Part shown: positions 1 through 54,530 of the stretch, piece after piece
Layout of the letters: every line of letters starts with the position of its first letter
How positions within the stretch are numbered: the stretch's first letter is position 1
Assembly: GCF_055900595.2 (NCBI RefSeq)
Contig: NZ_CM148325.1
DNA: 64,000 nt
Strand: one strand, 5' to 3'
Position numbers and translations under genes: made by a program
Notes under the pieces: generated by a model
Database searches by the model: none
Seen by the model: the letters and a program-made list of their open reading frames with translations, nothing else
What the model was told of the DNA's origin: nothing

Positions 1-675
1 AGCGATATCCTCATGGATATCGAAATTGACCACGCAGACCAGACCGAAGAGAGCGATATATCCTTCCTGACCCGCATGGCTGAAATGCTGGGTGCGATTG
101 CCACCGTAAAAAACGGCAGCCTGTTATTCATTCTGCCGGGTGGCGGAACCGGGCCGGACGGAAGAGCCCTGCCTTCGTTCGCCATTACCCGCAGCAGCGG
201 CGACAGTCACCGCTTTCGCATTGCTGACCGTGATGCGTATACGGGGGTCCGGGCGCACTGGCTCGATCTGAAGTTCGGGCAAAAGAAAAAAGTGAACGTG
301 AAGCGACGCAGGGAAGCCGGGAAACAGAAACAGGAGAAGAGCAGCAGCCGGGAAGGTGATTACATGGAGGGCGCGGAAGGGAACGTCTACGTTCTGCGCA
401 GGACTTACCAGAATGAAGAAACCGCACGACGTGCAGCAGCTGCAAAGTGGCAGGAACTACAGCGGGGCGCGGCATCATTCTCCATCACGCTGGCGCGCGG
501 TCGTGCCGACCTGTACCCTGAAATGCACGGCAGGGTAACAGGTTTTAAAAGCGAGGTGGACAATCAGGACTGGATTATTGCCAGGGTGGAGCACAGCATA
601 GATGAAAGCGGCTTCACCACACAACTGGAGCTGGAAGCGAAAATCCCCGAATGGATAGCAGATTCAGGCGGATAA
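1..675 (+). CDS. P2-like phage late control protein D (gpD), C-terminal part; ORF is open at window start so 5' end lies upstream
   Basis: Translation recognised as gpD-like tail/late protein; frame open from position 1; followed 44 bp later by an ogr-like gene as in P2 gene order D-ogr-att. Confidence 0.75.
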   Translation, partial: SDILMDIEIDHADQTEESDISFLTRMAEMLGAIATVKNGSLLFILPGGGTGPDGRALPSFAITRSSGDSHRFRIADRDAYTGVRAHWLDLKFGQKKKVNVKRRREAGKQKQEKSSSREGDYMEGAEGNVYVLRRTYQNEETARRAAAAKWQELQRGAASFSITLARGRADLYPEMHGRVTGFKSEVDNQDWIIARVEHSIDESGFTTQLELEAKIPEWIADSGG

Positions 676-718
676 AATTAAAATGAGCCATCTCCACTCA
701 GCCAGATAAGGAGAAGCC

Positions 719-970
719 ATGTTCCGTTGTCCCCTGTGCGGTGCATCCGCACGTATCCGCACCAGTCGCAATGAAAATGATTCAGGCACAGTTCGCCTGA
801 AGTACTACCAGTGCAATAACCTCGAATGCGGGATCGGCTTTACCACACTGGAGGGTTTTAACAAATTCACATCAAAACGCGCCCCGTCGCCGCAGGGTAC
901 AGAGCGGATACCGTGGGAAGATTTTCCGGGATCTCACAGGGGGAATGCTCAGATGAATCTTGATATTTAA
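719..970 (+). CDS. ogr: Ogr/Delta-family zinc-finger late transcription activator (P2-like phage)
   Basis: 83 aa, Cys4 motif C-x2-C-x24-C-x4-C (CPLC...CNNLEC), AAGGAG RBS 7 nt upstream of ATG, position immediately after gpD. Confidence 0.8.
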   Translation: MFRCPLCGASARIRTSRNENDSGTVRLKYYQCNNLECGIGFTTLEGFNKFTSKRAPSPQGTERIPWEDFPGSHRGNAQMNLDI

Positions 971-980
971 GAACAATAAT

Positions 981-1114
981 CAGGTTGAGAGGACATCATA
1001 AGGCAAGTAGATTAACGGCAGATACTTTCCCGCAACCACGGGCAAGTATTTAATTATCCATGATGAAATATGACCTAAATTGTTTTTTGCCCGCCGGAAA
1101 GCGGGCATTTTTTT
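981..1114 (+). repeat. Partial copy (U0) of a repeated unit, ending in terminator hairpin T0; candidate phage attR / 3' end of an sRNA-like gene
   Basis: Shares ggttgag, agtagattaac, attatccatgat and the terminator with the units at 1626-1783 and 1828-1987. Confidence 0.5.
1088..1114 (+). terminator. Intrinsic terminator-like hairpin T0 (tgcccgc-cggaaa-gcgggca + T7)
   Basis: 7-bp GC stem, 6-nt loop, 7 consecutive T; identical to T1. Confidence 0.7.
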
Positions 1115-1328
1115 ATTCTTTTGTGGTTATGGGGTCATCAGGAACCACGTGCAGATTATATTTTTGTTTTTTTGGCGTTCCTCCGGCAGCAACGAGTTCA
1201 TCAATAAGACACTGACACGCCTGAACATCCCGGGCATGTCTTAGTTTCACCTTTATTGATTTAACCTTATCCTCACCGGAGGAGAAATGCAGTTCAATCT
1301 CAATATCGTTTCTTCGGAACAATCTCAT
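1113..1328 (-). CDS. Hypothetical small protein (71 aa), orphan ORF between repeat copies
   Basis: ORF with G-rich RBS-like tract (caggggggcgt) directly upstream of ATG; no family recognised; stop codon abuts T0. Confidence 0.35.
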   Translation of the reverse strand: MRLFRRNDIEIELHFSSGEDKVKSIKVKLRHARDVQACQCLIDELVAAGGTPKKQKYNLHVVPDDPITTKE

Positions 1329-1554
1329 ACGCCCCCCTGAACATATCAGAAATGCTAGTATCGAAAAATGAGAAAACAGTTAGACAGGAGAAACATATTA
1401 ACACAAATCATTTATACCTATAGATGAAATTATAATTTCATTCATGAATATGATAGATAACTATATTGTGAACAAAATGAAAAATGGCTAAATTAAAAAT
1501 GGGCATGGAGGAATGCCTCGTAATCAGTAATACATGATCCATACTTCCTTGTTT

Positions 1555-1581
1555 TGCCCGCCGGAAAGCGGGCATTTTTTT
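1555..1581 (+). terminator. Intrinsic terminator-like hairpin T1 (identical to T0)
   Basis: Same stem-loop and T7 run as T0; preceded by conserved catgat motif. Confidence 0.7.
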
Positions 1582-1625
1582 GGCGGTTACCATCGCCTCA
1601 CCTTCCTGGTTCACACAAAGCAACC

Positions 1626-1783
1626 CTGATTTTCCATGAAAACTTCAGGGTTGAGCCAAAAGCACAAAGACAGTAGATTAACCAAGGGTACCCGCCACCT
1701 GCCAACAGGAACGGTATCCAGTACGTATTAATGACTGACAATTCACATTGCTGTTTTGCCCGCCAGAAGGTGGGCATTTTTTT
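1626..1783 (+). repeat. Repeat unit A (about 158 bp) ending in terminator T2; candidate sRNA-like gene copy
   Basis: About 85 percent identical to unit B over the first 75 nt; ends in hairpin gcccgcc-agaa-ggtgggc (one G.U pair) + T7 at 1757-1783. Confidence 0.55.
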
Positions 1784-1827
1784 GGCAGTTATCATGGACG
1801 CACCTTCATGACACATATTAAGCAGAC

Positions 1828-1987
1828 CTGATTTTTCCATGAAAAATTCATGGTTGAGACAAAAGCACAAAAACAGTAGATTAACCACGGGTGCCTGCCA
1901 CCTGACAACAGGAAGGGGTGTCCATTATCCATGATATACAAACGAAAAGTCTTGTCTTTTGCCCGCCGTTGCGCGGGCTTTTTTTTT
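1828..1987 (+). repeat. Repeat unit B (about 160 bp) ending in terminator T3; candidate sRNA-like gene copy
   Basis: Homologous to unit A and to U0; ends in hairpin gcccgc-cgttgc-gcgggc + T9 at 1961-1987. Confidence 0.55.
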
Positions 1988-2016
1988 GCCACCCTCACCA
2001 GTGAGGGTACCATCAT

Positions 2017-2238
2017 TCAGAGGCGCGTAAGCCACCCGGCGTTAACATCCTGCCCGTCAACCCTGACCGCAGAGTCTGAACGGCAGGCACCGGAAGCAGT
2101 ACCAAAAACACCTCTGACAAGTTCCGCCACCTTCCCGATATCATCAGGCGCCACATTCCTCACCTCGACAGCGATCCGTGGCGTACCATCATCGTTAACA
2201 AGCGTGGCTTTAAGGCTGGTACGACGGGCAAATAACAT
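2017..2238 (-). CDS. Hypothetical protein (73 aa, MLFARRTSLKATLVNDDGTPRIAVEV...)
   Basis: ORF with GGAGG-type Shine-Dalgarno (gggaggggg) 8 nt upstream of ATG, balanced amino-acid composition; family not recognised. Confidence 0.4.
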   Translation of the reverse strand: MLFARRTSLKATLVNDDGTPRIAVEVRNVAPDDIGKVAELVRGVFGTASGACRSDSAVRVDGQDVNAGWLTRL

Positions 2239-2294
2239 CAACACCCCCTCCCTTCGGTTCGTTGCACTGGCAGCACGATACCACCAGGAAAAAG

Positions 2295-2329
2295 AAAAGC
2301 CCACAACGTCAGGATTGCGGGCTTTTTTT
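2295..2329 (+). terminator. Hairpin T4 with A-tract upstream and T7 downstream (bidirectional terminator-like)
   Basis: aaaagccc...gggcttttttt about 70 bp upstream of copA -35. Confidence 0.5.
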
Positions 2330-2394
2330 CTTCAAAAATGGACACTACGTGGACACTGATTAAATAATCCTTTCTTAATCAGACTGTTAAAATG

Positions 2395-2431
2395 CTTGAC
2401 CTTCCCCTTGCTGGAAGGTTTAACCTTTAAC
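2395..2431 (+). promoter_or_regulatory. copA promoter with CueR (MerR-family) operator dyad ccttcc-N7-ggaagg between -35 and -10
   Basis: Sequence cttgaccttccccttgctggaaggtttaacc recognised as the copA/CueR box; AAGGAG RBS at 2454-2459. Confidence 0.85.
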
Positions 2432-2465
2432 ACAGTCAGTCAACACTGTCTTAAAGGAGTACGTT

Positions 2466-4970
2466 ATGTCACAAACTATCGACCTGACCCTGGACGGCCT
2501 GTCCTGCGGTCACTGCGTTAAACGCGTGAAAGAAAGTCTCGAACAGCGCCCGGATGTTGAGCAGGCGGATGTGTCTATCACTGAAGCGCACGTTACCGGT
2601 ACTGCCAGTGCAGAACAGCTGATCGAAACCATCAAACAAGCGGGTTATGACGCATCTGTAAGCCACCCAAAGGCTAAACCGCTGGCGGAGTCATCAATCC
2701 CGTCGGAAGCACTGACAGCGGTTTCTGAGGCGCTTCCGGCAGCAAACGCCGATGACGATGACAGTCAGCAGTTGCTGCTGAGCGGCATGAGCTGCGCCAG
2801 CTGTGTTACCCGCGTACAAAATGCGCTGCAAAGCGTACCGGGCGTCACTCAGGCACGGGTAAACCTGGCGGAGCGTACTGCGCTGGTGATGGGCAGTGCC
2901 TCCCCACAAGATTTAGTGCAGGCAGTGGAAAAAGCGGGCTACGGCGCGGAAGCGATTGAAGATGACGCTAAACGCCGCGAGCGCCAGCAGGAAACCGCCG
3001 TCGCTACCATGAAGCGCTTCCGCTGGCAGGCAATTGTCGCTCTGGCGGTAGGTATCCCGGTGATGGTCTGGGGGATGATCGGCGATAACATGATGGTCAC
3101 CGCCGACAACCGCAGTCTGTGGTTAGTTATCGGCCTGATAACGCTGGCGGTAATGGTTTTCGCCGGCGGGCATTTTTACCGTAGCGCATGGAAAAGCCTG
3201 CTGAACGGTGCGGCGACAATGGATACGCTGGTGGCGCTGGGTACTGGCGTGGCGTGGCTCTATTCAATGAGCGTCAACCTGTGGCCGCAGTGGTTCCCGA
3301 TGGAAGCGCGACATCTTTATTACGAAGCCAGTGCGATGATTATCGGTCTGATTAATCTCGGTCATATGCTGGAAGCGCGCGCACGTCAGCGTTCTTCAAA
3401 GGCGCTGGAGAAATTACTCGATTTAACCCCGCCGACGGCGCGCCTGGTCACTGACGAAGGTGAAAAAAGCGTGCCGCTGGCAGATGTTCAGCCTGGTATG
3501 TTACTACGCCTGACGACCGGCGATCGCGTACCGGTAGATGGTGAAATTACCCAGGGCGAAGCGTGGCTGGATGAAGCAATGCTGACGGGCGAACCTATTC
3601 CGCAGCAAAAAGGCGAAGGCGATAGCGTTCATGCAGGTACCGTGGTGCAGGACGGTAGCGTGCTGTTTCGTGCCAGTGCGGTTGGCAGCCATACTACGCT
3701 GTCACGGATCATTCGTATGGTGCGCCAGGCCCAGAGCAGTAAACCGGAAATCGGCCAGTTGGCGGATAAAATCTCTGCCGTATTTGTGCCGGTAGTGGTG
3801 GTGATTGCGCTGGTCAGTGCGGCAATCTGGTACTTCTTTGGTCCGGCACCGCAAATTGTTTATACCCTGGTGATTGCCACTACGGTACTGATTATCGCCT
3901 GCCCGTGTGCGCTGGGGCTGGCAACGCCAATGTCGATTATTTCCGGCGTCGGGCGTGCGGCTGAATTTGGCGTGCTGGTGCGGGACGCCGACGCGCTGCA
4001 GCGCGCCAGTACGCTCGACACCGTAGTGTTCGATAAAACCGGGACGCTGACCGAAGGGAAGCCGCAGGTTGTCGCAGTAAAAACATTTGCTGATGTTGAT
4101 GAAGCGCAAGCATTGCGTCTGGCGGCGGCACTGGAACAAGGTTCCAGCCATCCGCTGGCACGGGCGATCCTCGATAAAGCAGGCGATATGCAGCTGCCGC
4201 AGGTCAACAGCTTCCGTACATTGCGTGGGCTGGGCGTGAGCGGTGAAGCAGAAGGTCATGCGTTATTGCTGGGTAATCAGGCGTTGTTAAATGACCAGCA
4301 AGTCGATACTAAAGCGATTGAAGCAGATATTTCAGCCCAGGCATCGCAAGGGGCAACGCCTGTGCTGCTGGCGGTTGACGGGAAAGCGGTGGCCTTGCTG
4401 GCGGTGCGCGATCCGTTGCGTAACGATAGTGTGGCGGCACTGCAACGTCTGCATAAAGCGGGATATCGTCTGGTGATGCTAACCGGGGATAACCCGACCA
4501 CCGCCAATGCGATCGCCAAAGAAGCAGGGATTGATGAGGTGATAGCCGGCGTGCTGCCAGACGGTAAAGCCGAAGCGATCAAACGTCTGCAAAGTGAAGG
4601 ACGTCAGGTGGCAATGGTGGGCGACGGCATTAACGACGCGCCAGCGCTGGCTCAGGCGGATGTCGGTATTGCTATGGGTGGCGGCAGCGATGTTGCCATT
4701 GAAACCGCGGCGATTACCCTGATGCGCCATAGCCTGATGGGTGTTGCGGATGCGCTCGCAATTTCCCGCGCAACGCTGCGCAACATGAAGCAGAACCTGC
4801 TCGGTGCGTTTATCTACAACAGCATTGGTATTCCGGTCGCCGCCGGTATTTTGTGGCCGTTCACGGGAACACTGCTTAACCCGGTGGTTGCCGGAGCGGC
4901 AATGGCGCTCTCGTCGATTACCGTAGTGAGTAACGCCAACCGGTTGCTGCGGTTTAAACCGAAGGAATAA
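2466..4970 (+). CDS. copA: Cu(I)-translocating P-type ATPase
   Basis: 834 aa; two N-terminal GxxCxxC metal-binding domains, CPC motif, DKTGT phosphorylation site. Confidence 0.97.
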
Positions 4971-5165
4971 GTATGTCATTGCGGATGCGCTGCTTTAGGG
5001 TGGCGCATCTGGCATCGACGCATGCCTGCCGGATGCGGCGATGTTTTGGCCTTACGCGACCTTTTTGCACGTTTTCCCCGGCGTGCCAAATATTTAATCC
5101 GTCCCAACTCCATTTGCGCCATCCCTCACCGCGCGCTAGCATGATATTTCACAAAGGGAGGTCGT

Positions 5166-5960
5166 ATGGATCTGTTGTACCGGGTAAAAACGCTTTGGGC
5201 CGCGCTGTGCGGTAATCATTACACCTGGCCTGCTATCGATATCTCTCTTCCCGACCATCGCCATTTTCATCTAATCGGCAGTATTCATATGGGTAGCCAC
5301 GATATGGCTCCCCTGCCCACCCGTTTGCTCAAAAAGCTCAAAAACGCCGATGCGCTGATCGTCGAGGCGGATGTTTCTACCAGCGATACGCCTTTTGCCA
5401 ATTTGCCTGCCTGCGAGGCGCTGGAAGAGCGCATTAGCGAGGAGCAACTCCAAAACCTGCAGCACATTAGCCAGGAGATGGGCATTTCTCCGTCGCTCTT
5501 TTCTACCCAACCGCTGTGGCAAATCGCGATGGTTCTTCAGGCAACGCAAGCGCAAAAACTGGGGCTGCGGGCAGAATATGGTATCGATTACCAGCTATTG
5601 CAGGTGGCGAAGCAACAACATAAACCCGTGATTGAACTGGAAGGGGCAGAAAACCAGATTGCCATGTTGCTCCAGCTCCCTGACAAAGGACTGGCGCTGC
5701 TGGACGATACGCTGACCCACTGGCACACCAACGCTCGTTTGCTGCAACAAATGATGAGTTGGTGGCTGAATGCACCACCGCAAAATAATGAAATAACGCT
5801 GCCCAATACGTTCAGTCAGTCGCTGTACGATGTGTTGATGCATCAGCGAAATCTCGCCTGGCGGGACAAATTACGCGCTATGCCGCCGGGGCGCTATGTG
5901 GTCGCGGTCGGTGCACTACACCTGTATGGAGAAGGGAATTTGCCACAAATGTTGCGCTAA
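5166..5960 (+). CDS. ybaP: TraB-family protein YbaP
   Basis: 264 aa, recognised as YbaP; GGAGG RBS. Confidence 0.9.
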   Translation: MDLLYRVKTLWAALCGNHYTWPAIDISLPDHRHFHLIGSIHMGSHDMAPLPTRLLKKLKNADALIVEADVSTSDTPFANLPACEALEERISEEQLQNLQHISQEMGISPSLFSTQPLWQIAMVLQATQAQKLGLRAEYGIDYQLLQVAKQQHKPVIELEGAENQIAMLLQLPDKGLALLDDTLTHWHTNARLLQQMMSWWLNAPPQNNEITLPNTFSQSLYDVLMHQRNLAWRDKLRAMPPGRYVVAVGALHLYGEGNLPQMLR

Positions 5961-6042
5961 AAAAATGGCCAATATCGCTATTGGCCCGTCAAAGAGGAAT
6001 TTCATTTTTTTATTATTATGCCGTCACTTTAAGCGACGGTGT
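5959..6042 (-). ncRNA. chiX: ChiX (SroB/MicM) Hfq-dependent small RNA
   Basis: Reverse complement matches remembered ChiX sequence ACACCGTCGCTTAAAGTGACGGC...GGCCAATAGCGATATTGGCCATTTTTTT; 3' end overlaps ybaP stop codon. Confidence 0.9.
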
Positions 6043-6679: not shown

Positions 6680-8332
6680 TTACTGCCAGCTCACCTCACC
6701 TTTCGGTTCATAGACACTCACATCCAGCGGCGAGTTTTTCTGGATATACGCTTTCAGCACTTCAGCATCAATAAAGCCGGTATTCACATAGCCCGGTTTG
6801 TTATCCAGACGCGGATAGCCATCACCGCCAGTGGCATTGAAGTTTAATGTCGCCATACGGTAAGTTTTCGCCGGATCGACCGGTTCGCCTTTGATTTTCA
6901 GGTCGTTCAGTTTGCCGTCTTTCGCCACAAAGCTAACGTTGGCAAATTGCGGATAGGCACCAGAATCAGGCTTCATTTGTGCGACGGCGGTCAGGTAATC
7001 AATCACCTCTTTACCGGTCATGTCGGCATACACCACCACATTGCCGAATGGCTGCACTTTCAGCACATTTTTATAGCTGATATCACCTGTTTCGATAGAA
7101 TCACGAATTCCGCCTCCGCTCATCACCGCAAAGTCGGCACCAGTGCGATCCATTTGTGCTGCCAGAATCAACCGCCCCATATTGGTCTGTACAAAACGCA
7201 CTTTGCTGCGGTCGCCTTCCAGACGACCATTGGTTTCGCCTATTTTCACTTCCAGCTGCGCTTTGCCTTTGTTCTGGAACGGTGATAACAGCGAAATCAT
7301 TTGCTGGTTTTCGGCGATTTCAGGGGTGTAAAGCACACGCTCGCTTTTCCCGTCTTCCCAGGTCACTTTCTTCTTCAGGTTTACCGGAATCAACTGGTAG
7401 TTGACCATTTTCATTTCGCCGTTGCGAAACTCAAAGTCGGCCCGACCAACGTACTTGCCCCACTCATGCGCTTGTACAATCCAGATGCCATTTTGTTGAT
7501 CCGGTTTGCATGGCGTACCAGGAACGTAATCGACCTGTTTTTTATTTTCTGCCGCCATACAGACTGGATCTTGCGAGTGACCTCCGACGATCATCGCCAG
7601 CGATCCGGCAGGCAGCGCGCGTGCCATCTCCACATCGCCCGCTGCATTAGAGCCGTGCTCACCATTGTCGTAATGCCCCATATGGGTTGCCGCGATAATA
7701 ATGTCTGGCTTTTCTGTCTGTTGCAGCTCCTGAATCACCAGCTTCGCTTTATCAGCGGGCTTACGAAATTCGATATCAGTGAAGTATTCCGGGTTACCAA
7801 TTTTGGCTGTGTCATCGGTTGTCAGCCCAATAACGGCAATTTTCAGATCCTGACGCTTAAACAGCGCCCATGGTTTAAACAGGCGCTCACCAGTGCTTTT
7901 TTGGTAGATATTGGCGGAAAGCAACGGGAACTTAGCCCACTTTTCCTGCTGGCGTAATACGGTGAGCGGGTTATCAAATTCATGATTACCGATCGCCATT
8001 GCATCATAGCCCACCAGATTCATACCTCGAAAATCAGGTTCGGCATCCTGTAAGTCGGACTCGGGCACGCCAGTATTAATGTCGCCACCGGAAAGTAGCA
8101 GCACGCTACCACCTTCAGCCGCAACCTCTTTGCGAATACCGTCCACCAGCGTTTTTTGCGCCGCCAGACCATATTCGCCATATTCATTACGCCAGAAATG
8201 ACCATGATGATCATTGGTATGCAGAACTGTAATTTTGTAGGTTTTATCCTGCTCATAAGCCAGAGCAGTTTCACTCGCCAGTGTAAATGTGGTTAACAGT
8301 GCTAACGCCACGCCCCGCTGCAATAATTTCAT
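6680..8332 (-). CDS. ushA: UDP-sugar hydrolase / 5'-nucleotidase (periplasmic)
   Basis: 550 aa with signal peptide, metallophosphatase motifs. Confidence 0.95.
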   Translation of the reverse strand: MKLLQRGVALALLTTFTLASETALAYEQDKTYKITVLHTNDHHGHFWRNEYGEYGLAAQKTLVDGIRKEVAAEGGSVLLLSGGDINTGVPESDLQDAEPDFRGMNLVGYDAMAIGNHEFDNPLTVLRQQEKWAKFPLLSANIYQKSTGERLFKPWALFKRQDLKIAVIGLTTDDTAKIGNPEYFTDIEFRKPADKAKLVIQELQQTEKPDIIIAATHMGHYDNGEHGSNAAGDVEMARALPAGSLAMIVGGHSQDPVCMAAENKKQVDYVPGTPCKPDQQNGIWIVQAHEWGKYVGRADFEFRNGEMKMVNYQLIPVNLKKKVTWEDGKSERVLYTPEIAENQQMISLLSPFQNKGKAQLEVKIGETNGRLEGDRSKVRFVQTNMGRLILAAQMDRTGADFAVMSGGGIRDSIETGDISYKNVLKVQPFGNVVVYADMTGKEVIDYLTAVAQMKPDSGAYPQFANVSFVAKDGKLNDLKIKGEPVDPAKTYRMATLNFNATGGDGYPRLDNKPGYVNTGFIDAEVLKAYIQKNSPLDVSVYEPKGEVSWQ

Positions 8333-19194: not shown

Positions 19195-21126
19195 TCAAAT
19201 GGGGCGGATACTTTCTTCATCCAGCTCCGCATCGAAGAATCGACGCAGGGTCTGAATATTATTATCCGCAATAATGGACTCGCGCGCCTGCGCAAGTTTT
19301 TCTTCGTATATCGCCTGACGCCATTCCAGCGGCGTGCGCACCGCGGGATTATCATCTTCAACGATAGTCAGTTCAACCGTTGAACCTTTTAACGTGCTCA
19401 ACGCTTCAGCCAGTTTTTGCTGTGCACCGCGGTTGTTTAAATGCCGCTGAGAGGAGCGCAAATGCAGACATACTGCGTTGTCGCTCTCCTCTTTCCAAGC
19501 ATTTAACGCCACCTGTTCGACCAGTTTTGGTAGCGAAAGTTGGCTCACCTGTGCCGCCCAAGGATCGCGGTCAATGGCTTCTGCCGCCAGCTTTGCCGCC
19601 AGTTCCGGCGTTTTTTCATGTTCCAGCGCTTTTTTCAGCGCCTTCGGCGTGGCGACCACCTCTTTTTGCTGCATCACTGGAGTGGTAGCCTTCCAGCGAT
19701 ACGCTTCTTTTTTGGCTGGTGCTTTTTCCAGCGCCGATGGCCCCGGACGCGCCTGAACGCGATCGGTGACCGAAGCCAGTCTTTCCAGCGCAGCGTTATT
19801 CACCGGCCGCGCGCGGGTAGCGGCTGCCGGTTCACTCTTTTTTGCTTTGGTTGCTCCCTGTGCGCGCTGCAGTTGTTGGCGCGCTGCCAGCACCTGGCTG
19901 GTGGTTTCTGAGAGCGGTACAGTCGGTGCCTGCTGCGGTGCTGATTGCGGTTGCGGCGGCACCTGGGTTGGCGTCATTACTGCCGTTGGCGCGACGGGCG
20001 CAAAAGACTGGCGTGGCACTTCTGGCTCAGGCAGCGGCATACGCGGATGAAACGCCAGTGCGCGCAACAGTGTCATCTCAACGCCCATGCGGCGGTCCGG
20101 CGCATACGGTAATTCTTTGCGACCAATCAACAGCGTTTGATAGTAAAGCTGAATATCCGTCGGCGGTATGGTGCGCGCCAGTTCACGCATCCGCAGCTCG
20201 ATGGCGGCCATGTCGTTGCCCAGCGCAGCAGGGGAAAGTTGCACCATTGCAATGCGGTGCAACAGGCCGAGCATTTCTACCAGCAACGCTTCCCACTCAA
20301 TACCACGAGCGGCGGCTTCATTAATCAGCGACATTACACGCTCGCCGTTGGCTTCAACCATCGCTTCAACCAGCGACAGCGCCTGATCGTCGTCAAGCGT
20401 ACCCAGCATCGCACTGACCGCCTGGGTTGAAACCTGGCCGTCACCGCTGGCAATTGCCTGGTCGGTTAAACTTAGGGCATCTCGCAAGCTGCCTTCAGCG
20501 GCGCGCGCCAGCAGTTGCAGCGCCCGCGGCTCGTGAGCGATATGTTCTTCGTTGAGGATGTGCTCAAGCTGATGGCGAATTTGCTCGACATCCAGCGCCT
20601 TGAGATGAAATTGCAGGCAGCGTGACAAAATCGTCACCGGCAATTTCTGCGGATCGGTCGTCGCCAGCAGAAACTTGACGTGCTCCGGCGGTTCTTCAAG
20701 GGTTTTTAACAGTGCGTTAAAGCTGTGGCGCGACAGCATATGCACTTCGTCGATCAGATAAACTTTAAAACGACCACGCGCTGGCGCGTACTGGACGTTA
20801 TCCAGCAGGTCGCGGGTATCTTCGACTTTGGTGCGCGAGGCGGCGTCGATTTCAATCAGATCGACAAAGCGCCCCTGCTCAATTTCACGACAGTTATCGC
20901 ACACGCCGCACGGCGTCGCGGTAATGCCGGTTTCGCAGTTTAGCCCCTTCGCCAGCAGTCGGGCGATAGAGGTTTTTCCGACGCCACGGGTGCCGGAAAA
21001 AAGATAAGCATGATGAATACGCCCTAACGACAAGCCGTTCGCCAGTGCGGTCAGCACATGTTCCTGGCCGACGACGTCAGCAAAGGTTTGTGGGCGCCAT
21101 TTTCGGGCTAAGACCTGATAACTCAT
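19195..21126 (-). CDS. dnaX: DNA polymerase III tau subunit (gamma produced by programmed -1 frameshift)
   Basis: 643 aa, AAA+ Walker motifs; slippery heptamer A AAA AAG at 19837-19843 (minus strand). Confidence 0.97.
   Translation of the reverse strand: MSYQVLARKWRPQTFADVVGQEHVLTALANGLSLGRIHHAYLFSGTRGVGKTSIARLLAKGLNCETGITATPCGVCDNCREIEQGRFVDLIEIDAASRTKVEDTRDLLDNVQYAPARGRFKVYLIDEVHMLSRHSFNALLKTLEEPPEHVKFLLATTDPQKLPVTILSRCLQFHLKALDVEQIRHQLEHILNEEHIAHEPRALQLLARAAEGSLRDALSLTDQAIASGDGQVSTQAVSAMLGTLDDDQALSLVEAMVEANGERVMSLINEAAARGIEWEALLVEMLGLLHRIAMVQLSPAALGNDMAAIELRMRELARTIPPTDIQLYYQTLLIGRKELPYAPDRRMGVEMTLLRALAFHPRMPLPEPEVPRQSFAPVAPTAVMTPTQVPPQPQSAPQQAPTVPLSETTSQVLAARQQLQRAQGATKAKKSEPAAATRARPVNNAALERLASVTDRVQARPGPSALEKAPAKKEAYRWKATTPVMQQKEVVATPKALKKALEHEKTPELAAKLAAEAIDRDPWAAQVSQLSLPKLVEQVALNAWKEESDNAVCLHLRSSQRHLNNRGAQQKLAEALSTLKGSTVELTIVEDDNPAVRTPLEWRQAIYEEKLAQARESIIADNNIQTLRRFFDAELDEESIRPI
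19837..19843 (-). other. dnaX: dnaX programmed -1 ribosomal frameshift slippery site (A AAA AAG)
   Basis: Plus-strand cttttttg; protein context ...ATKAKK SEPAAATRARP matches the known gamma C-terminus region. Confidence 0.85.
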
Positions 21127-36657: not shown

Positions 36658-36771
36658 GGGTGGGGGCCCTGCCAGCTACATCCCGGCACACGCGTCATCT
36701 GCCTTGGCTGCTTCCTTCCGGACCTGACCTGGTAAACAGAGTAGCGTTGCGGGAGAACCAACAGAGCCCCC
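36658..36771 (-). ncRNA. ffs: 4.5S RNA (signal recognition particle RNA)
   Basis: 114 nt; reverse complement matches GGGGGCTCTGTTGGTTCTCCCGCAACGC...GGGCCCCCACCC. Confidence 0.95.
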
Positions 36772-54343: not shown

Positions 54344-54450
54344 AGAGCTCTCTCTTAGTTTAATTTCCGCCAGGTAATCAGATGACACGACTGTGCTTCA
54401 CGCCATCTATTAACATGTACGTCAGTATATGGGGATGTTTCCCCCACATT
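54344..54450 (-). promoter_or_regulatory. lon heat-shock promoter region, uninterrupted
   Basis: Recognised leader ...CCCCATATACTGACGTACATGTTAATAGATGGCGTGAAGCACAGTCGTGTCATCTGATTACCTGGCGGAAATTAAACTAAGAGAGAGCTCT ATG. Confidence 0.6.
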
Positions 54451-54530
54451 CAACGCCGAGAATAGAGGAAAAATTAAAGGGGAGATAAAATCCCCCCTTT
54501 TTGGTTAACTAATTGTATGGGAATGGTTAA

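Follow-up and report, generated by a model that had tools for sequence, protein, structure and literature searches.

Tandem candidate small-RNA genes between ogr and the attachment site of P2-like prophages in Escherichia coli

A 64,000-nt stretch of contig NZ_CM148325.1 (RefSeq assembly GCF_055900595.2), here called the window, carries the end of a P2-like prophage next to copA. Between the late activator gene ogr and the phage attachment site attP we found an array of four units without an open reading frame (ORF), in each of which a hairpin-plus-U-run terminator lay approximately 80–100 nt downstream of a sigma-70-like promoter. We propose, at about even confidence, that the units are independently transcribed phage small RNA (sRNA) paralogs of the Hfq type with swappable seed segments. 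The anatomy of the units, their conservation pattern, the lack of ORF conservation, the location within a phage and the rarity of the array were observed directly and are described first; the alternatives are then weighed against the proposal.

Four promoter–terminator units downstream of ogr

The four terminators were located on the + strand at 1088–1114 (T0), 1555–1581 (T1), 1757–1783 (T2) and 1961–1987 (T3), where a preliminary description of the window had placed them. A repeat finder returned a 30-nt block, TTTTGCCCGCCGGAAAGCGGGCATTTTTTT, that was identical at 1085–1114 and 1552–1581, confirming the reported 30-nt match of T0 and T1, and that was retained with 90% identity at 1754–1783 and 83% at 1957–1986. 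The start-to-start distances of the blocks were 467, 202 and 203 nt, the latter two in agreement with the period near 200 bp first described. A consensus scan called seven terminator-like sites in 700–2500, including T0–T3, all four on the + strand, compared to 1.9 ± 1.3 sites in shuffled sequences. The repeat array is genuine and beyond chance. The stem-keeping paired substitutions that had been attributed to T2 and T3 were not found: the only difference within the 6-bp stem GCCCGC/GCGGGC was a single G-C pair turned into G-U in T2, the others fell in the loop (one of them adds a seventh pair in T2), and none was compensatory.

The promoter-like site ahead of every hairpin had been overlooked, and its recognition divides the array into the following units:

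985–1114, + strand: U0, long type, linker class I (promoter and terminator scans). TTGAGA 985–990, 17-nt spacer, TAGATT 1008–1013; predicted start ~1020, 5' hairpin 1020–1051, single-stranded linker 1052–1087, T0.
1466–1581, + strand: U1, short type (alignment and terminator scan). TTGTGA 1466–1471, 17-nt spacer, TAAATT 1489–1494; predicted start ~1501, local hairpin GGGCAU-GGAGGA-AUGCCU 1501–1518, linker 1519–1554 with the anti-Shine-Dalgarno-like CUUCCUU, T1.
1651–1783, + strand: UA, long type, linker class II (alignment and terminator scan). TTGAGC 1651–1656, 17-nt spacer, TAGATT 1674–1679; predicted start ~1686, 5' hairpin 1686–1719, linker 1720–1756 with UCACAUUGCU, T2.
1854–1987, + strand: UB, long type, linker class I (promoter and terminator scans). 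TTGAGA 1854–1859, 17-nt spacer, TAGATT 1877–1882; predicted start ~1889, 5' hairpin 1889–1923, linker 1924–1960 with AUUAUCCAUGAU, which the U0 linker shares, T3.

Units with their own promoter and terminator recur with a period of ~200 nt. The sequence following the ogr stop codon, previously taken for a partial copy, is a complete unit (981–1114) with its own −35 and −10 elements at 985–1013, and T1 closes a short-type unit that had been missed (TTGTGA-17-TAAATT, 1466–1494). The U0 and UB promoters passed a strict scan with 9 of 12 matches. The stretches 1626–1756 and 1828–1960, described as about 85% identical, shared 86.6% identity over their 5' 95 nt, which take in the upstream palindrome, the promoter and the 5' hairpin; overall identity was 79%, and the last 33 nt before the terminator were unrelated (49%). 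Homology of the sequences following the terminators was confirmed (1550–1633 and 1752–1835, 80% identity).

By sequence prediction, all four units have their own promoter and Rho-independent terminator around a non-coding transcript of ~50–300 nt, the general criterion for an sRNA gene. All four also have the U-rich tract, hairpin and tail of at least 6–7 U by which an Hfq module is recognized. No tRNA or tmRNA gene was detected in 700–2600 with ARAGORN.

Conservation and predicted RNA structure

Sixteen distinct terminator-bearing sequences were gathered, one of which is the hok mRNA terminator, and the seven distinct long-type variants among them were aligned. Unchanged in all seven were GGTTGAG (−35), AGTAGATTA (−10), the U-tract with the 5' terminator stem (TTTTGCCCGCC), the 3' stem and the T-run. 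The variable parts were the 17-nt promoter spacer, which differed at many positions in long variant L7, parts of the 5' hairpin, the entire linker and the terminator loop (CGGAAA, CGGAGA, CGAAGC, CAAAGC, CGTTGC or AGAA). The 3' module, UUUU plus GCCCGC(C)...GCGGGC plus 7–9 U, was common to the four window units and to all distinct unit variants collected, 15 of the 16 sequences with a terminator. The predicted long-type transcripts were 96–102 nt long, though the paralogs were only 60–79% identical.

The RNAalifold consensus comprised a two-tier 5' hairpin, an unpaired linker and the terminator, with 19 pairs in total, and the single-sequence folds agreed with it. The fold of U0 (1019–1114) had a predicted energy of −27.8 kcal/mol (z = −3.71); the z-scores of U1 and UA were −2.26 and −2.35, respectively. 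U0 built its two-tier hairpin from a different sequence (AGAUACUU/AAGUAUUU plus CCCG/CGGG, versus GGGUACC/GGUAUCC plus CCUG/CAGG), which suggests conservation of structure, provided that the aligned columns are truly homologous, which is uncertain. The hairpin alleles (GGGTACC and GGGTGCC) occurred with both linker classes (I and II) in all four combinations; therefore, recombination takes place between the units. A covariance model of the long units (R1) found exactly four units in the window and no further copy, scoring UB, UA and U0, all three part of the model build, at 105.2, 90.3 and 88.5 bits and U1 at 39.3 bits.

No reading frame was conserved across the unit variants in any of the frames. 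The + frame ORF measured 21, 31 or 50 amino acids depending on the variant, started upstream of the −35 element and had no Shine-Dalgarno sequence. In that frame the two 31-amino-acid ORFs of UA and UB differed at 14 residues, the number of differences first counted. Minus-strand ORFs running through the units shifted in frame and length (59, 46, 68, 31 and 69 amino acids), and one variant had none of at least 20 amino acids. The ATG in each linker was rejected as a gene start, since it reads into the terminator without a stop codon.

A proposed family of Hfq-type phage sRNAs

We hypothesized that the array encodes sRNAs because the anatomy of the units, which leads from a promoter through a 5' hairpin and an AU-rich single strand to a U-tract, GC hairpin and 7–9 U, is the standard one of enterobacterial Hfq-dependent base-pairing sRNAs. 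The U-tract/hairpin/poly-U 3' module is reportedly the canonical Hfq-binding module of base-pairing sRNAs in these bacteria. Under this hypothesis, the ogr–attP interval would be a 'moron' region holding four independent sRNA genes of ~80–100 nt, all pointing outward and each driven in the lysogen by its own sigma-70-type promoter. Each RNA would consist of a 5' stem-loop, an AU-rich single-stranded linker of 33–37 nt and a 3' U-tract with a GC hairpin and 7–9 U, and Hfq would be bound at this 3' module. As the seed, the linker would pair with mRNAs of the host or of competing phages at their translation-initiation regions; CAU (anti-AUG) is found in the linkers, and CUUCCUU (anti-Shine-Dalgarno) in that of U1. 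The paralogs would differ chiefly in the linker, with two classes in the long units in addition to the short type, and recombination between units would shuffle scaffold and seed. Transcription, Hfq binding, trans-acting regulation and the existence of targets are what we infer from these features.

The location fits a phage moron region by analogy, as related phages place hok/sok, HicAB or a com/methyltransferase module there. Furthermore, copies of a neighbouring ORF (ORF71, see below) were truncated or lost in sister arrays, i.e. the arrays of related prophages, while the units retained promoter and terminator.

Prophage setting and attachment core

The window opens with the end of a P2-type gene D (13–675), followed by ogr/Delta (719–970), small ORFs over ~1.4 kb, the copA promoter and copA (2466–4970), as seen in the ORF listing of 1–3000. 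The features that accompany the units are:

719–970, + strand: ogr/Delta-like zinc-finger late activator (ORF; annotated as WP_000488096.1 in near-identical loci, 99.7–99.9%), the final conserved phage gene ahead of the array.
1113–1328, − strand: ORF71, a 71-amino-acid hypothetical protein (ORF listing), convergent with U0, with a stop codon that falls just within the T0 U-run at its downstream end.
1376–1465, no strand assigned: AT-rich intergenic relic with homology to the P arm of attP; its arm repeats are degenerate, and it contains the palindrome ATGAAATTATAATTTCAT.
1582–1650, + strand: spacer from T1 to the UA promoter, with the small hairpin GGCGGTTACCATCGCC and the palindrome CCCTGA-N15-TCAGGG; the homologous spacer is 1784–1853 (76% identity).
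2017–2238, − strand: ORF73, convergent with UB, annotated as a hypothetical protein in related loci; coding status doubtful.
2295–2394, no strand assigned: attP P arm as found in attR, with a hairpin (2295–2326) and two TGGACAC direct repeats (2339–2345 and 2350–2356).
2395–2414, no strand assigned: attachment core at attR, CTTGACCTTCCCCTTGCTGG, common to attL, attR and the empty site of strain BL21.

The 20-bp core CTTGACCTTCCCCTTGCTGG occurs once in the BL21 empty site, between glsA and copA (...TTTATTAATTTCTTGACCTTCCCCTTGCTGGAAGGTTTAACC...). In lysogen CS5L (locus L003), a 34-kb P2-like prophage is inserted between these two genes; the glsA-side junction reads ...CTTGACCTTCCCCTTGCTGG|GGACAAAG... 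(core at L003 7372–7391) and is followed by the integrase gene, and the copA-side junction of the window reads ...GTTAAAATG|CTTGACCTTCCCCTTGCTGG|AAGG. Because this comparison of attL, attR and the unoccupied attB allele of BL21 places the core at 2395–2414, the whole of 971–2394 is phage DNA, an accessory interval bounded by ogr and attP. Consistently, the match to the query began only at window position 2395 in 5415 of 5426 complete E. coli genomes. Within the copA promoter (PcopA), the core coincides with the −35 hexamer and the left CueR half-operator; the promoter is restored at attR with phage DNA upstream of the −35 element.

A pair of repeats matching the two TGGACAC copies of the P arm was found on the int-proximal arm (TGGACAC then TGGACAT, L003 ~7489–7515). 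The paired repeats on both arms, which we take to resemble the arm-type sites of P2 Int, are probably integrase arm-type sites. Degenerate copies occur inside the arrays, at ~1376–1400 in the window and at 2449 and 2647 in locus L004, a serS-type relative. The segment 1376–1465 aligned with the genuine P arms of both the window and L004 and with internal L004 copies that still bear GTGGACA.

Hairpin 2295–2326, directly upstream of the ORF73 start, has 13 pairs, lies between an A-run and a T-run and looks like a bidirectional terminator; its weak Rfam matches to Thr-leader are noise. A second small hairpin follows every terminator, GGCGGTTACCATCGCC in the window (1582–1597) and GCGCCTGCCATCGAGGCGC in sister arrays (L004 2840–2858), and the 27-bp palindrome CCCTGA-N15-TCAGGG (1622–1650) abuts the next −35 element. 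The palindrome and small hairpin could be an operator or a processing site.

Distribution and sister arrays

Megablast and sensitive blastn alike detected the array in 30 of 5426 complete E. coli genomes, with 2–8 matching places per genome. At every locus inspected (the window and nine E. coli genome loci), it followed the ogr gene of a related P2-like prophage. The prophages occupied four integration sites, at copA, ihfA, serS and zapB, with four terminators per array in the copA and ihfA types, seven at zapB and nine at serS; the last terminator at serS and zapB was that of the hok mRNA. The copA-type and ihfA-type arrays part exactly at the T3 end. In the serS-type locus L004, whole segments of ~1.2–2 kb spanning a unit, ORF71, a short unit, a long unit and hok/sok were duplicated.

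Sister arrays carried hok/sok or HicAB as cargo. Their only recognisable Rfam element was sok, at 48 and 46 bits, just under the threshold of 59. The more distant P2-like phages P88 and Chuche have hok/sok or a com/methyltransferase module in the ogr–attP interval, without the units. The early region of the same prophage encodes a RelE-family toxin with a helix-turn-helix partner and a DUF6516 gene with a regulator (L003 17212–17926 and 16419–17176, respectively), and with the hok/sok or HicAB modules beside the sister arrays this prophage lineage is rich in toxin–antitoxin cargo.

A BLAST search of a phage collection matched ogr and nothing else, and one of a plasmid collection gave no match. 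Three prophage fragments of the E. coli type, together with chance matches, came from a pattern scan of viral contigs. The corresponding scan of metagenomes returned five contigs with the same E. coli prophage variants, with minor differences in the terminator loop and U-run. Among one genome per species, 34 single terminators and no array were found. The junction at ~975 of metagenome contig L056 (OERJ01002631.1) joins a ~25% GC, Clostridia-like oxidoreductase fragment to the U1 body at ATTAAAAATGGGCATGG. Chimeric assembly is the most likely explanation, and the idea that U1 is the 3' end of a host gene, which this contig had suggested, was set aside. A full-text literature search found no paper on sRNAs beside ogr or within P2-like prophages, and the terminator sequence in no paper.

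The chromosomes of approximately 12 Rahnella species carry an sRNA-like gene that converges on a cspA-like gene (L017 7889–7967, L030 8032–8109 and orthologous loci). It has a TATACT −10 element, a 5' hairpin, the linker AUAAUGAAUGUCA, whose start resembles those of the units, and the same TTTTGCCCGCC..GCGGGC-poly-U terminator. No Rfam entry was found for it; it scored 35–43 bits with R1. Based on these similarities, it is possibly a distant relative or the source of the units.

Evaluation of the sRNA proposal and its alternatives

Several observations weigh against the sRNA proposal. The fold of the whole UB RNA (z = −0.69) was no better than that of shuffled sequences, and the UA and U1 promoters, with 8 of 12 matches, fell below the strict scan. 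Only 1 of the 19 consensus pairs changed on both sides among the seven distinct, closely related sequences. Covariation is weak, mainly because the variants are few and close. The case for an sRNA paralog family made in the preliminary description loses its argument from compensatory change; the reading itself still fits the sequence, with its invariant promoter-like pairs, predicted fold and lack of a conserved ORF. When the linkers were scanned for duplexes with 49 translation-initiation regions (from prophage genes and the flanking copA and glsA), the best energies did not surpass those of shuffled linkers. The range is very narrow (30 of 5426 genomes, with no variant beyond the E. coli prophage ones added by the viral and metagenome scans), and for this reason the invariance of the units could be due to recent duplication or gene conversion instead of selection. 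Finally, the array contains relics, namely the P-arm-like segment and the truncated ORF71 copies.

These relics form the core of the strongest alternative, which we consider unlikely, albeit a serious contender: the array could be debris of repeated recombination at prophage ends, through tandem lysogeny and deletion or through int–attP exchange, and the units could be without function. The ORF71–U1 intergenic segment shows homology to the P arm of attP, with GTGGACA repeats retained in the internal L004 copies; L004 duplicates whole end segments of ~1.2–2 kb; ORF71 matches just the C-terminal half of a phage protein family and its copies are truncated; and the copA-type and ihfA-type arrays have their breakpoint exactly at the T3 end. 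Narrow distribution and weak covariation point the same way. The P-arm-like segment, the duplicated end segments and the T3-end breakpoint together indicate that prophage-end recombination built the arrays. In this softened form, and as far as array architecture goes, the earlier idea of attachment-site scars is correct: the ORF71–U1 stretch is a homolog of the P arm and the larger sister arrays have duplicated ogr-to-attP ends, although the terminators themselves are not cores. A lack of function is harder to reconcile with the units, since decaying debris should lose promoters and vary in length. Paralogs of only 60–79% identity instead retained the −35 and −10 elements, spacer length, transcript length and the complete 3' module, with loops, spacer and linker free to vary, and they did so while the adjacent ORF71 copies decayed.

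It is improbable, to our judgement, that the array serves as a terminator stack insulating the neighbouring host gene from ogr and late read-through, with the promoter-like sites being incidental. All 4–9 terminators of every array are oriented from ogr toward the host junction, T0 is the sole terminator-like site between the ogr stop codon and the next unit, and the host genes that the prophages immediately precede or adjoin (copA, ihfA, serS and zapB) are essential or regulated. A single terminator would suffice for this purpose, however, and the invariant −35 and −10 elements ahead of each terminator would launch new outward transcription and defeat the insulation. Insulation also gives no role to the conserved 5' hairpin or the fixed unit length.

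An extension of the sRNA proposal, similarly improbable, is that the array is a phage sRNA cassette platform, in which a fixed scaffold (promoter and 5' hairpin) and Hfq/terminator module surround an exchangeable seed, and some seeds imitate those of host sRNAs. Seeds would be shuffled between units and related prophages, and host-like seeds would let the prophage enter host regulons or hinder competing phages. The example would be the class II linker, in which a piece of the RyhB core is found (UCACAUUGCU, or CUCACAUUGCU in the sister variants); this core spans the start codon of sodB. The Rahnella chromosomal gene could be the ancestral source.

The likeness to RyhB (RF00057) was pursued separately. 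Class II linkers share CUCACAUUGCU (in sister variants; UCACAUUGCU in UA) with the RyhB core, an 11-nt shared core with a local alignment p of ~0.001–0.002, uncorrected. The scan for the terminator motif also brought up the RyhB gene of Intestinirhabdus alba (confirmed by Rfam at 75 bits), which ends in the same TTTTGCCCGCC...GCGGGC motif as the units. Homology to or mimicry of RyhB was nonetheless rejected: the Rfam RyhB model scored 24.4 bits against a threshold of 55, with only 11 nt of the core GCACGACAUUGCUCACAUUGCUUCCAGU kept; R1 scored the I. alba RyhB at 22.7 bits, under most control loci picked solely for the same terminator; and predicted pairing with the real sodB leader (p ~0.26–0.28) was no better than that of shuffles, versus 0.05 for the RyhB core itself. 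No Fur box was evident in the units by eye.

Type I toxin–antitoxin repeats of the Sib/Ibs or Ldr/Rdl kind, in which the + strand RNA is antisense to a minus-strand toxic peptide gene, would account for tandem ~200-bp units with an sRNA-like gene in each. Minus-strand ORFs with partly hydrophobic stretches (e.g. PWLIYCLCAFGSTL) do cross the units, and the sister phages have toxin–antitoxin neighbours (hok/sok, HicAB). These ORFs change frame and length between variants, by which this very unlikely explanation is largely refuted. In addition, the ATG and Shine-Dalgarno sequence opposite U1 are missing in other short-type variants, the UA/UB differences are nearly all non-synonymous in the minus-strand frame also, and the neighbouring ORF71 and ORF73 had no PADLOC or Pfam match in a scan that covered these two rather than the minus-strand unit ORFs. 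A type III system (ToxIN-like, with ~36-nt RNA repeats and a co-oriented toxin) was rejected as well, given the ~200-nt period with a promoter and terminator per unit, the absence of a co-oriented downstream gene and the lack of a PADLOC match for ORF71 and ORF73.

The view that each terminator is an integrase core left by successive integrations, as suggested in the preliminary description, is refuted for the resident phage and scarcely credible in general. P2-family phages often have terminator-shaped cores, the serS-type relative seems to use the serS terminator region, and T0 and T1 are identical over 30 nt; but attL and attR share CTTGACCTTCCCCTTGCTGG in the copA promoter rather than a terminator, and the terminator motif is absent from the glsA-side junction and the empty site. 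Moreover, the same array is unchanged in prophages at four chromosomal sites, and the P-arm-like relic lies ~160 nt from T1, compared to real arm-to-core distances of ~45–55 nt. The expectation of a terminator-shaped core beside ogr had been drawn from P2, whose attP core lies in the cyaR terminator. The likeness extends to a P2-family phage with a terminator-shaped element beside ogr; the expectation is inapplicable here, as the resident core is copA promoter sequence (2395–2414) rather than a terminator, and the units point away from ogr, in contrast to cyaR, which faces ogrK in the P2 setting.

Comparison with known RNA and repeat families

With Rfam 15, region 981–2040 gave no match at the gathering threshold, nor at E ≤ 1 apart from terminator-driven noise. 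REP/BIME, ERIC and insertion sequence (IS) ends were rejected, as the array occurs in only 30 of 5426 genomes, lies just after ogr at all inspected loci and has no other copy in the window. The first impression that the unit is no known sRNA, REP or IS family was thus upheld by Rfam and by the genome distribution.

The closest parallels in layout are OmrA/OmrB of E. coli, PrrF1/PrrF2 of Pseudomonas, LhrC1-5 of Listeria and Qrr1-5 of Vibrio. Like the units, these are adjacent, co-oriented sRNA genes of ~80–110 nt, each of which runs from its own promoter to a Rho-independent terminator and combines conserved ends with a divergent segment. They are chromosomal and genus-wide, and their seed is the conserved part. 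The units, in contrast, are known from sequence alone, belong to a rare prophage, occur in 4–9 copies and vary most in the presumed seed, the linker.

With DicF, IpeX, AgvB/AsxR, PasA-D and IsrK of E. coli and Salmonella, the units share the character of accessory sRNA cargo of prophages that varies between strains in presence and copy number. The E. coli prophage sRNAs known so far (DicF, AgvB/AsxR, Pas and IpeX) are single, dispersed genes of lambdoid origin. DicF, IpeX, AgvB/AsxR, PasA-D and IsrK occur as dispersed copies in lambdoid or Stx-type prophages, whereas the units are tandem in the ogr–attP interval of a P2-like (Peduoviridae-type) prophage. The Rfam models of prophage sRNA families gave no above-threshold match to the units (AgvB reached 23 bits against a threshold of 56). 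A survey of Pas sRNAs likewise reported that the Pas copies are not tandem (bioRxiv 10.64898/2026.05.13.724894).

The Sib/Ibs (QUAD) and Ldr/Rdl (LDR) loci resemble the array as tandem repeats of a few hundred bp, each with a terminator-capped sRNA. In those loci a small hydrophobic ORF is conserved opposite the sRNA, whereas the units conserve none. The units belong to none of the compared sRNA families and differ from them by the P2-like phage host, the tandem layout and the concentration of variation in the presumed seed.

Neighbouring ORFs and other features of the window

ORF71 had just five near-identical E. coli relatives among 5.8 billion proteins, and it covers only positions 72–127 of the 128-position profile phrog_14142, the C-terminal half. 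Its paralogous copies in L004 were truncated or lost. Judged by its sequence, ORF71 is probably a remnant of a longer phage gene. For ORF73, only four relatives were found, and its dN/dS of 0.63, versus 0.79 and 1.03 in the other two frames, gave no clear sign of purifying selection. Neither ORF had a significant Pfam or NCBIfam match or a PADLOC match, and their status as genes is doubtful. The somewhat CsrA-like starts of both ORFs and the CAGGAAG or GGAGGA loop in the units prompted the idea of a CsrA-like protein with sponge RNAs. It was dropped, as there was no Pfam or NCBIfam match to CsrA, only 1–2 GGA motifs per RNA and no clear purifying selection on ORF73.

Downstream of the prophage, copA and ybaP are separated by only ~195 bp (4971–5165), and the window strain seems to lack the higA-like ybaQ, which BL21 and LH50-c have at this position. 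LH50-c additionally has IS1397 in the copA–ybaP region. Rfam matches at the gathering level were ChiX/sroB (5959–6042, − strand), the dnaX frameshift element (19798–19862, − strand), 4.5S/SRP RNA (36667–36763, − strand) and sraA (54415–54510, + strand), the usual E. coli core content of this region.

Significance

Taken from its sequence, the array presents a clean and testable candidate sRNA family whose architecture is instructive, but one with a narrow range, no target found and a credible alternative as a relic. Integration into the copA promoter and CueR operator, which the phage rebuilds, may matter for copper regulation in the lysogen. If the units are silent, the locus would be an unusually clear record of duplicated scars building up at prophage ends. 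If they are expressed, ~1.4 kb of prophage DNA with only two doubtful hypothetical-protein annotations would have to be reinterpreted, for the most part, as RNA genes and relics of recombination. The units would then be the first tandem sRNA gene family placed in the ogr–attP cargo region of a P2-like phage, and a compact natural case of seed diversification upon a constant scaffold.

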